Notes under the pieces: generated by a model
Told to the model about the DNA's origin: nothing
The model's database searches: none
Seen by the model: the letters and a program-made list of their open reading frames with translations, nothing else
Program-made: the position numbers and the translations under genes
In this document: positions 33,935 through 35,737 of the stretch, one piece after another
How positions within the stretch are numbered: position 1 is the stretch's first letter
Layout of the letters: the number at the start of each line of letters is the position of its first letter
NCBI GenBank assembly: GCA_016699445.1
Contig: CP064976.1
Location: forward strand, 2,222,619-2,286,618
Direction: 5' to 3'
DNA: 64,000 nucleotides
Source: Deltaproteobacteria bacterium
GTDB lineage: Bacteria; UBA10199; JACPAL01; GCA-016699445

Positions 33935-35737
33935 TTAAGCCGCTTGATAAGCAGGTTTGATAGCGTCGTTAGCAGCTTGAGAGTTGGTGAGTATCGAGGT
34001 TGGTGTTGGAAGCGGCTGTTGTTGCGTGGCCATATTTTGAATATCCTGAATCATGATTTGCATGACTTGGCCTGAGGAGAGTTGGCTGCATTGATTGTAA
34101 AATTCCTGACTGGTTGCTGCTCTAAAAATATAGGCGTTTACAGGACCTGCCTGGGAATTGAGTAAACCCTGAAGATCGTAGATTTTATCTAAAAAGTGGA
34201 GACTTCCTGAAATTCTAAAAAAGTATTTTAAAACTGCAATGCCTTCTTTTTCTGTCAGAGTTCGGAGCCTTCTATCAGGACCCATAAATTGTTCGAGGCT
34301 TTGTCCATTCTGATAAGGATTGCGCTGTCCTTGGCCAGATTGGTCTCCATCTCTGGAATCCCCGAACGCTCTATTTTGAGAAGGATCTTCCTGGGCTTTA
34401 ACCGCATCATCATTTTCCGCTTGAGCTCTCTGAGCGACCTGAAGCGGTGTGGTGTACGGATCGTTGTGTAGTTGCTGCATGTTGGCAGCGGCTTGAGTCA
34501 AGTGAGGTGCTAAAGGATTACCATAAAAAGCAGGGTTTTGAGCTTGAGGTAATGGTGTTTGAGCATTGGGCATTCCGGTCATCAAAGTGTGTTGAGAATT
34601 CTGTGCAGTGCCTGGTGTTGTGGCGTAAGGAGTTGTAGGTATCTGATAGCCCGTTGTCGCTGGGGAGTAGGCTTGAGGGTAGTTTTGAGTTGGGATCTTT
34701 TGTCCAAACAGTCGTGGTCCGGCAGCTAAAAGATTGGCTCTACTTGTGGGCCCAAAAGTTTGCTTATAAAGAGCCACTTTTTCATTGGTAATAAAACCGT
34801 CTTTGCCTCTTGCCGCCAGCTGAGCCTTAGGCTGAATGATTTCTCGAGCAACTCGTAACAATATATCGGTGACACGTGTGTTGGGTGAAATATCTTTGGG
34901 AATAAGAGTATCGTTGCGTAACTGTGTGACGAGCTTTTGGATAGCTTCTGCAATGACTTTGGGAGCTGGAGGTTGAAAACCTTGTTGTTTTAATTGGTCA
35001 GCAATTTCTCGTGGAGCTCGCTGTGAAAGTTCCTGATGAAATTCTCCCGCAAGATTTTTTCCAGAATTTTTAACATCTTCATTCTTAGGTCTTAAGAGAA
35101 GTTGAAAGCTTTGTTCTAAGGATAATTCTTTTCGGACAGTGACTTGAGACGCCTGAGGTTGTTGAGTCTGAGGGTGATTGGTATTGGCTGCAGGAGTATT
35201 CGGATTAAAAGTATTGTGAGGGGTAGAAAGTTGAGTTTGCGTGGCATGAGCAGGGGCTTGATGAGTTGTTTGAGGTGTATGAGGAGATGTTTGTTGAGCT
35301 GTCGACGCATCTGCATGATTTGTATTAGCAGGTAAAGATCGTGTGAAAAGAGTTTCTAATCCTGAAGTGAGATTAGTTGAAGGAATGACCTCTCCCAAAG
35401 CCGCCGCTTGAAGTAGGGTAAGTTGAGGGGGTTCAGCTTGTGCCTGTGAAGGATTGGCTTGAAGAGGTGCTTGTCTTCCTAAAACACTGTTGCCGACTTG
35501 ACCTTGCGGTTGAGCCAAAAGAGGCGAAGAAATAGTAACGGTAAACCCACTGCCATTGAGTGAAATAGTGATGGGGGCTGCTGGCGTTTGAGGAAGAGGT
35601 TGAGCGGTCGGTGTTATCCCAGGAACTAACGACGTCGTCGGAATCTTGACAGAGGCAATCTGAAACAACCCAAACCGGCTCGACAGCTCCTGTCTGCTTG
35701 TTTCAAATCCCCAACTATGTCCGACGAGTTTAGACAC
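33935..35737 (-). CDS. Low-complexity Pro/Gln/Thr/Ala-rich protein, 600 aa, probably largely disordered
   Basis: Long ORF; composition-biased segments (PQTTHQAPAHATQTQ, QTPLPQAQNPAFYGNPLAPH) with structured C-terminal ~120 aa. Confidence 0.5.
   Translation of the reverse strand: MSKLVGHSWGFETSRQELSSRFGLFQIASVKIPTTSLVPGITPTAQPLPQTPAAPITISLNGSGFTVTISSPLLAQPQGQVGNSVLGRQAPLQANPSQAQAEPPQLTLLQAAALGEVIPSTNLTSGLETLFTRSLPANTNHADASTAQQTSPHTPQTTHQAPAHATQTQLSTPHNTFNPNTPAANTNHPQTQQPQASQVTVRKELSLEQSFQLLLRPKNEDVKNSGKNLAGEFHQELSQRAPREIADQLKQQGFQPPAPKVIAEAIQKLVTQLRNDTLIPKDISPNTRVTDILLRVAREIIQPKAQLAARGKDGFITNEKVALYKQTFGPTSRANLLAAGPRLFGQKIPTQNYPQAYSPATTGYQIPTTPYATTPGTAQNSQHTLMTGMPNAQTPLPQAQNPAFYGNPLAPHLTQAAANMQQLHNDPYTTPLQVAQRAQAENDDAVKAQEDPSQNRAFGDSRDGDQSGQGQRNPYQNGQSLEQFMGPDRRLRTLTEKEGIAVLKYFFRISGSLHFLDKIYDLQGLLNSQAGPVNAYIFRAATSQEFYNQCSQLSSGQVMQIMIQDIQNMATQQQPLPTPTSILTNSQAANDAIKPAYQAA

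Follow-up and report, generated by a model that had tools for sequence, protein, structure and literature searches.

The 64,000-nucleotide (nt) stretch of a Deltaproteobacteria bacterium genome analyzed here (assembly GCA_016699445.1, contig CP064976.1; the whole stretch is referred to below as the window) contains a 600-amino-acid (aa) open reading frame (ORF) rich in proline, glutamine, threonine, and alanine. This raises the question of whether such an ORF is a real gene and, if so, what kind of protein it encodes; the original prediction had proposed a largely disordered protein of the surface or secreted adhesin- or effector-like type. We confirmed the ORF at positions 33935 to 35737 of the minus strand, where the coding sequence comprises 600 aa and a stop codon and begins at GTG. 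The analysis makes it very probable that this is a real, modular orphan gene whose product lacks a Sec signal.

A word-indexed search of 5.8 billion proteins identified a sole full-length relative, P0001 (47% identity over 95% of the query). P0002 and the fragment P0003 were added by a filter-free HMMER scan of 1.84 billion representatives, and tblastn against nadB-anchored loci located a 594-aa orthologue on contig CAZKQW010000015 of a metagenome-assembled genome (locus L002), of which P0003 is the C-terminal part. In all, three full-length orthologues of 594 to 606 aa accompany the window protein among approximately 15 billion proteins; all come from uncultured relatives, their BLAST identities to the window protein are 47%, 43%, and 34%, and the frame is intact. 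The nadB genes of the family loci are 81 to 88% identical to one another and to the nadB gene of the window. Analysis at the DNA level covered three orthologues, those of the window, L001, and L002, all of which start at GTG and keep the frame. Synonymous sites are saturated (proportion of synonymous differences, pS, 0.74 to 0.95), whereas the proportion of nonsynonymous differences (pN) is 0.21 to 0.28 in two domains and 0.38 to 0.55 in the linkers described below, and every insertion or deletion between orthologues is a multiple of three. A ribosome-binding site, AAGGAG (35743 to 35748, minus strand), lies 5 nt 5' of the GTG and is invariant across all four orthologous loci. Since the frame is intact in the orthologues and replacement changes lie far below the saturated silent changes, these data indicate that the ORF is translated and that it is a genuine, constrained gene whose family is very small and confined to its lineage. 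The strong guanine-cytosine (GC) skew over the ORF and the presence in the window of at least two frameshifted genes (dnaJ and a repeat-protein gene) could raise the suspicion of a spurious ORF or of a pseudogene in decay, but we consider the probability of this negligible in view of the full-length frame in four diverged orthologues and the conservation of both ribosome-binding site and start codon; the alternative frames across the ORF hold ORFs of merely 60 to 75 aa.

Outside these four proteins the gene has no recognizable kin. A word-indexed search of the 5.8 billion proteins with the whole protein and with a profile of the C-terminal domain, the latter suggested in the original prediction, found nothing beyond the four orthologues. 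The HMMER scan of the 1.84 billion representatives returned only the family itself, apart from P0004, a 483-aa protein of approximately 60-aa tandem repeats (E value, 6.5e-4); a 40-residue stretch of the profile matched it seven times, and we judged the match spurious. Back-translated pattern scans of Genome Taxonomy Database (GTDB) genomes and Joint Genome Institute (JGI) metagenomes detected no further members, nor did any appear when the profile was run against every ORF of 80 more distantly related loci anchored on nadB; tblastn against phages and plasmids revealed no relatives. None of the four orthologues matched Pfam or NCBIfam at E values up to 10, the 600-aa protein had no match in PHROGs or PADLOC, and Protein Data Bank (PDB) sequence profiles gave no match and linked it to no solved structure or fold. 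The family is new in the narrow sense that it has no known sequence family, structure, or fold, with four full-length members among approximately 15 billion proteins.

The biased composition claimed for the protein was borne out. Glutamine (12.3%), alanine (10.8%), threonine (9.3%), and proline (9.2%) together account for 41.7% of residues, compared with 23.2% in 36 other window ORFs, relative to which glutamine is enriched 3.2-fold, and charged residues make up 13.8% against 22%. The claim of histidine richness held locally, with 6 of the 12 histidines within residues 141 to 190, but not overall (2.0% versus 2.3% in the comparison ORFs). That most of the protein is disordered proved overstated, although its bias and long disordered stretches stand: a charge/hydropathy index scored 231 of the 600 residues as unfolded, chiefly residues 143 to 244 and 416 to 496, and strict low-entropy sequence covers 98 residues only. 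AlphaFold assigned a predicted local distance difference test (pLDDT) score below 50 to 469 residues, from a very shallow alignment of 4 sequences. There are no internal sequence repeats. These observations suggest a composition-biased protein with long stretches that are probably disordered, but not one that is uniformly disordered.

Comparison of the orthologues revealed three conserved modules, with two linkers between them that are flexible, almost without charge, and rich in Pro, Gln, Thr, and Ala. The N-terminal conserved region, residues 1 to 140 (35318 to 35737, minus strand, as are all the modules), was delimited by the invariant columns of alignment A2; it carries an MSKxxGxxWGFE motif, a predicted hairpin at residues 55 to 70, and AAxGE...PANTN at residues 105 to 140, and is approximately 92% identical between P0001 and P0002. 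Linker 1, residues 141 to 199 (35141 to 35317), is 68% Pro, Gln, Thr, and Ala, 2% charged, His-rich, and variable in length, with 26 gap columns in pairwise alignments. The central helical domain, residues 200 to 356 (34670 to 35140), ends in a GPRxF...NYPQA motif and is 62 to 69% identical to its counterparts in L001 and L002 (pN, 0.21 to 0.25); its helices were predicted by AlphaFold at pLDDT 42 to 63 only. Linker 2, residues 357 to 455 (34373 to 34669), is 56% Pro, Gln, Thr, and Ala, almost uncharged to residue 440, and again variable in length. The C-terminal conserved domain, residues 456 to 572 (34022 to 34372), shows 47 to 58% identity; its five-helix part covers approximately residues 478 to 572, and the confidently modeled core, residues 485 to 564 (34046 to 34285), was obtained from the same four sequences as a compact bundle at pLDDT 86 to 92. 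A variable tail, residues 573 to 600 (33938 to 34021), ends in an invariant Ala-Ala. The original prediction had regarded only the C-terminal 120 or so residues as globular; the folded C-terminal domain was confirmed, but two more constrained modules had been overlooked, and because the N-terminal region and the central domain are conserved, the protein consists of three constrained modules rather than of disorder up to its last 120 residues.

One of these modules has largely been exchanged within the family. P0001 and P0002 come from closely related organisms, whose nadB genes are 88% identical, and the DNA of their genes is 82 to 88% identical in the flanks of the central cassette. Over codons 200 to 350 or so, DNA identity drops to approximately 35%, with a 33-residue insertion, and then returns to 50 to 75%. 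Approximately 130 central codons are replaced (P0002 loci L082, 856 to 2676, and L083, 666 to 2486, versus L001, 3262 to 5055), the first 95 or so residues of the central domain are unrelated sequence in P0002, and in a profile comparison with P0002 the central region could be aligned over its last 60 or so residues only. This replacement looks like a recombined cassette. The alternative cassette of P0002 had no relatives in the word-indexed search of 5.8 billion proteins.

We found neither a signal peptide nor a lipobox nor a transmembrane segment in the 600-aa protein. Its N terminus, MSKLVGHSWGFETSRQELSS, has no hydrophobic core, the orthologues share this polar N terminus, and Kyte-Doolittle means over 19 residues peak at 1.09 across the protein. 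Likewise, in Pfam and NCBIfam searches at E values up to 10, none of the four orthologues showed an autotransporter barrel, an LPXTG motif, a type IX C-terminal domain, adhesin repeats, or another adhesin or anchor domain, and neither these databases nor PHROGs or PADLOC revealed a secretion domain in the 600-aa protein.

The C terminus of the protein is more constrained than its surroundings. A599 and A600 are invariant in the four orthologues, whereas the rest of the tail is 19 to 39% identical. The last 13 residues of the window protein (33938 to 33976), AANDAIKPAYQAA, resemble an ssrA tag; the corresponding tails are ALNDNFKAIHNAA in L002, ANDNVQPALVHAA in P0002, and ...PTQASHAA in P0001. 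All four family proteins end in Ala-Ala, compared with 1.3% of 2,682 control ORFs. An A(x)ND motif within the last 16 residues, together with a terminal Ala-Ala, occurred among these control ORFs only in the window and L002 family members, and P0002 carries the same combination. The ssrA tags of Escherichia coli, AANDENYALAA, and Caulobacter, AANDNFAEEFAVAA, are like the family in their terminal Ala-Ala, and three of the four orthologues share (A)AND(N), which corresponds to the SspB-binding part of such tags; the family tail differs in being encoded by the gene rather than added by transfer-messenger RNA (tmRNA). An overlapping tmRNA gene as the source of the tail was rejected, since neither Rfam nor ARAGORN detected one in the window and the downstream sequence differs among loci. 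Other proteins with genome-encoded ssrA-like C termini are the ClpX "C-motif 1" substrates and Caulobacter CtrA, with its terminal Ala-Ala. In the ssrA tag, AANDENY is bound by SspB and ALAA by ClpX (PMC8512704), and in short ClpXP degrons the terminal Ala-Ala is the critical element (PMC10862746). From these resemblances, it is plausible that the family C terminus is a ClpXP-type degron.

The region upstream of the gene is conserved beyond anything within it. Of the 68 nt 5' of the start codon, 58 columns (85%) are invariant across the four loci, compared with 21.6% of coding columns (no coding stretch exceeds 33 of 68) and 61% at the 3' end of nadB. The core of this region is a promoter-like block at 35755 to 35798 (minus strand), which contains two copies of CAACTC-N16-CGAT (35759 to 35784 and 35769 to 35794) phased 10 nt apart. 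An invariant CCGATAAC at 35756 to 35763 lies 18 nt before the GTG in all four loci, leaving space for a ribosome-binding site only. On the far side of the block, a tract at 35799 to 35825 (minus strand) is A/T rich in all four loci but not conserved in sequence, and resembles an UP element. No sigma-70-like site was found upstream of the gene. Judged against the sigma-28 -10 element (GCCGATAA or CCGATA), CCGATAAC agrees. However, the sigma-28 -35 element (TAAA or TTAAG, 15 to 16 nt upstream) is absent and CAACTC stands in its place, and in a scan for TAAA-N15-GCCGATAA with up to two mismatches the site upstream of the 600-aa gene was not among the matches; a canonical sigma-28 promoter was therefore rejected for want of its -35 element. 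We take CAACTC to be comparable to the "AAC" -35 of extracytoplasmic function (ECF) sigma factors. Sigma-28 promoters of both Bdellovibrio bacteriovorus and E. coli have CCGATA as their -10 element; in B. bacteriovorus, two thirds of the attack-phase promoters that have been mapped are driven by TTAAG-N16-CCGATA, and sigma-28 serves many nonflagellar attack-phase genes (PMC3627812). The window locus is like genes of the sigma-28 (FliA) type, the Bdellovibrio attack-phase regulon among them, in having CCGATAAC at the -10 position before a short leader; it is unlike them in lacking TAAA or TTAAG at 15 to 16 nt, in carrying CAACTC twice 10 nt apart, and in having no flagellar genes nearby. The block may be a group 3/4-type alternative-sigma promoter or, because the sigma-28 -35 element is absent at the proper spacing, an operator.

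Neither the motif nor its surroundings pointed to further members of a regulon. There is no other copy of CAACTC-N16-CGAT in the window or in any of the loci, so that no regulon is marked, and an exact scan of JGI metagenomes for the promoter core gave a sole match, by chance, inside an unrelated gene (L084). A gene for a cognate sigma factor was looked for among the window genes and none was found. A structured RNA was also rejected, with no Rfam hit at E values up to 1, no compensatory pairs, and folding z-scores of -1.0, -1.4, +0.6, and -0.9. An upstream ACACAC could pair with GUGUGU spanning the GTG (six pairs; 35732 to 35798, minus strand), and an upstream CUC could pair with the GAG of the ribosome-binding site. 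Of the four loci, three can form the ACACAC/GUGUGU helix and L002 has lost it, and no covariation is seen; such pairing could hide the site of translation initiation, which might be why the GTG start is conserved.

What kind of protein, then, might these features describe? We tentatively favor, at rather less than even chances, a multivalent tether that is probably cytoplasmic, or that at least bypasses the Sec, Tat, and lipoprotein routes; an alternative-sigma promoter, a GTG start, and turnover of the ClpXP type would limit its level. Each of the three modules would bind a partner or self-associate, and the two flexible, uncharged linkers would set their reach and spacing. Transcription would proceed from the gene's own conserved non-sigma-70-like promoter with its sigma-28/ECF-like CCGATAAC -10 element, translation would be kept low by the conserved weak GTG start, and the protein would be turned over through its ssrA-tag-like C terminus (...AND...Ala-Ala-COOH), of the kind recognized by ClpXP. 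The reality and constraint of the gene, its architecture, the lack of export signals, the conserved 5' block, and the invariant Ala-Ala are established, whereas the cytoplasmic location, the scaffold role (argued from the architecture), the acting sigma factor, and the proteolysis are inferred. The layout recalls PopZ, a scaffold and hub protein with a disordered linker, in its short conserved N-terminal motif, proline-rich flexible linker, helical C-terminal domain, and lack of an export signal. No similarity to PopZ in sequence or fold was found, however; the linkers of the 600-aa protein are uncharged and Q/T rich where that of PopZ is acidic, its length is three times that of PopZ, and it contains a central domain that PopZ lacks and comes from another lineage. 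Several observations weigh against a cytoplasmic tether of this design. The N-terminal and central modules were modeled with low confidence, and a central cassette exchanged among close relatives would be more expected in a protein whose external partners keep changing. The sigma-28 -35 element is missing, as described above. As for turnover, P0001 has no AND motif, and the residues preceding the terminal Ala-Ala are Q, H, N, and H (QAA, HAA, NAA, and HAA), not the Leu or Val of xLAA in ssrA tags and C-motif 1, which implies weaker recognition in E. coli; in that species the terminal Ala-Ala is necessary but not sufficient, and an antepenultimate His or short polar residue is disfavored (PMC10862746).

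Some of these same observations would fit a substrate of Sec-independent secretion, through a flagellar or injectisome type III system or as some other effector, the main rival reading but one that we regard as unlikely. Its N terminus would serve as an export or chaperone-binding signal and its disordered body would ease passage, while a promoter of the sigma-28 type would time its expression with that of late flagellar or attack-phase genes. The N-terminal 40 or so residues are indeed conserved despite the lack of a Sec signal, the disordered stretches are long, close relatives have exchanged the central cassette, as happens in proteins under diversifying pressure, the gene lies in a variable genomic slot, and the CCGATAAC -10 element recalls that B. 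bacteriovorus sigma-28 drives many nonflagellar attack-phase genes (PMC3627812). However, no flagellar or secretion genes occur in the 64-kb window or in the 21 kb of L002, the -35 element at sigma-28 spacing is lacking, the protein matches neither FliK, FlgM, nor any effector family, and one would hardly expect an exported protein to carry an invariant Ala-Ala degron of the cytoplasmic type. The secreted rulers FliK and YscP and the disordered chlamydial type III effector Tarp are like the 600-aa protein in their lack of a Sec signal, long P/Q-rich disordered body, folded C-terminal domain, and rapid modular evolution, and unlike it in that the 600-aa protein has no Flg_hook/T3S4 or effector domain, an all-helical C-terminal domain, and no secretion genes in view. 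On these grounds (no Flg_hook/T3S4 match, an all-helical C-terminal domain, and no flagellar cluster) the hook-length control protein FliK was rejected, and a FlgM-like reading failed on the defining feature examined, with no FlgM match. A Pro/Gln-rich spacer followed by a C-terminal domain of about 100 residues is also the layout of envelope or divisome linkers such as TonB, TolA, FtsN, and ZipA and of the flagellar ruler FliK, but we consider this class very unlikely: the N-terminal membrane anchor of such linkers is absent and no segment reaches transmembrane hydropathy, none of the four orthologues matches these families in Pfam or NCBIfam at E values up to 10, and the neighborhood in the window and L002 (nadB, a pgsA-like gene, a hydrolase gene, and dnaJ/dnaK) is unrelated. 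The all-helical C-terminal domain further sets the protein apart from these families, since the C-terminal domains of TonB, ZipA, SPOR proteins, and FliK have mixed alpha/beta folds. Composition alone, in the form of stalk-like P/Q/T/A-rich stretches next to a folded domain, speaks for an adhesin exported through Sec, at the surface or secreted, whose stalk would be of low complexity and whose C-terminal domain would be functional or anchoring. Because neither a signal peptide nor a membrane segment nor an anchor is present, and no lipobox or adhesin domain either, while the N termini of the orthologues are equally polar and the C-terminal domain is a small all-helical bundle, the adhesin of the original prediction is not supported and we rate it as extremely unlikely; the same lack of an export signal makes a cytoplasmic tether likelier than a surface adhesin. 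The remaining probability belongs to minor rivals and to functions that were not considered.

A further, rather improbable idea builds on the tail of the cytoplasmic tether. The family could carry a genome-encoded ssrA-tag mimic on a long, disordered multivalent protein, expressed from an alternative-sigma promoter and competing with ssrA-tagged rescue products for SspB and ClpXP. If so, the level of the protein would report proteolytic load or developmental stage, and its three modules would switch a lineage-specific process, making it a built-in "timer" or "load sensor" hub of a kind not previously described.

The genomic neighborhood places the gene in a slot whose contents vary. In L001 and L002, the gene directly follows nadB, approximately 100 nt downstream on the same strand, with a pgsA-like gene divergent upstream, and the P0002 gene likewise follows nadB; downstream in L002, convergent with it, are a 207-aa gene, a Hydrolase_4 gene, and dnaJ. 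The window keeps the nadB, pgsA-like, hydrolase, and dnaJ-dnaK blocks around the 600-aa gene. In the window only, a repeat-protein gene of approximately 1.7 kb is inserted between nadB and the 600-aa ORF, and two toxin-antitoxin modules, ParE/Phd (32515 to 33088, minus strand) and RHH/PIN (33230 to 33932, plus strand), are inserted beyond it, between the 600-aa and 182-aa genes, relative to L002. In L001 and L002, the slot holds the orthologue alone, whereas in L003, whose nadB is 71% identical, the slot (3981 to 7423, minus strand; compare window 32515 to 37505) holds an FtsX-like permease gene and an unrelated 701-aa gene. The 600-aa gene thus occupies a variable slot between conserved housekeeping blocks. 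The original prediction had noted its position between toxin-antitoxin modules and the repeat protein; the neighbors are as described, but since neither occurs at the orthologous loci L001 and L002, their proximity is accidental and lends the position no functional meaning. Membership in a toxin-antitoxin or defense island was rejected as well, there being no such modules beside the L002 orthologue and no PADLOC match.

Several further features of the window were noted. The stop codons of the PIN gene and the 600-aa gene are 2 nt apart, which leaves no room for a terminator, and a further antidote-like gene and a PIN gene lie elsewhere (47207 to 47671, plus strand, and 61855 to 62334, minus strand). 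The repeat protein (35840 to 37505, minus strand) consists of units of approximately 55 aa (...NPSVAYxxxxxxYLVVWxGD...EIxGQ...ISxMGxDG) with a tail rich in Gly and Ser. A frameshift near 36900 to 36920, not at a homopolymer, divides its gene into two overlapping ORFs; Pfam gave no significant match for the protein, and a signal peptide is not evident. The dnaJ gene (30026 to 31110, plus strand) is split into overlapping ORFs of 118 and 306 aa by a frameshift near 30085 to 30090 at an A run, CTCAAAAAAGCT; the orthologue in L002 is intact at 360 aa, and the window frameshift appears to be either a homopolymer sequencing error or a pseudogene. A protein of approximately 180 aa, bearing a hydrophobic leader at its N terminus and matching nothing in Pfam, is encoded beside the Hydrolase_4 and dnaJ genes in all three lineages (window, 31966 to 32514, plus strand; L002, 13481 to 14104, minus strand; L003, the C-terminal part of ORF 7350 to 8714, minus strand) and is more widely conserved than the 600-aa family. 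The rest of the window is ordinary chromosomal content, including dnaK, efp, fumarase, menaquinone, TRAP transporter, and fatty-acid genes.

These results correct the view of this gene: it is not an adhesin gene beside functionally linked toxin-antitoxin genes but a taxonomically restricted gene in a variable slot. Because orphan families are common in uncultured bacteria, the novelty of the family is by itself unsurprising, and nothing in it overturns an expectation, so that it ranks as somewhat better than an average hypothetical protein. What raises it above the ordinary are three joint features, namely, an upstream region more conserved than nadB, a swapped central cassette, and an invariant ssrA-like C terminus. 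Together, these features offer an inexpensive way to test for regulated proteolysis and control by alternative sigma factors in a lineage not yet studied.

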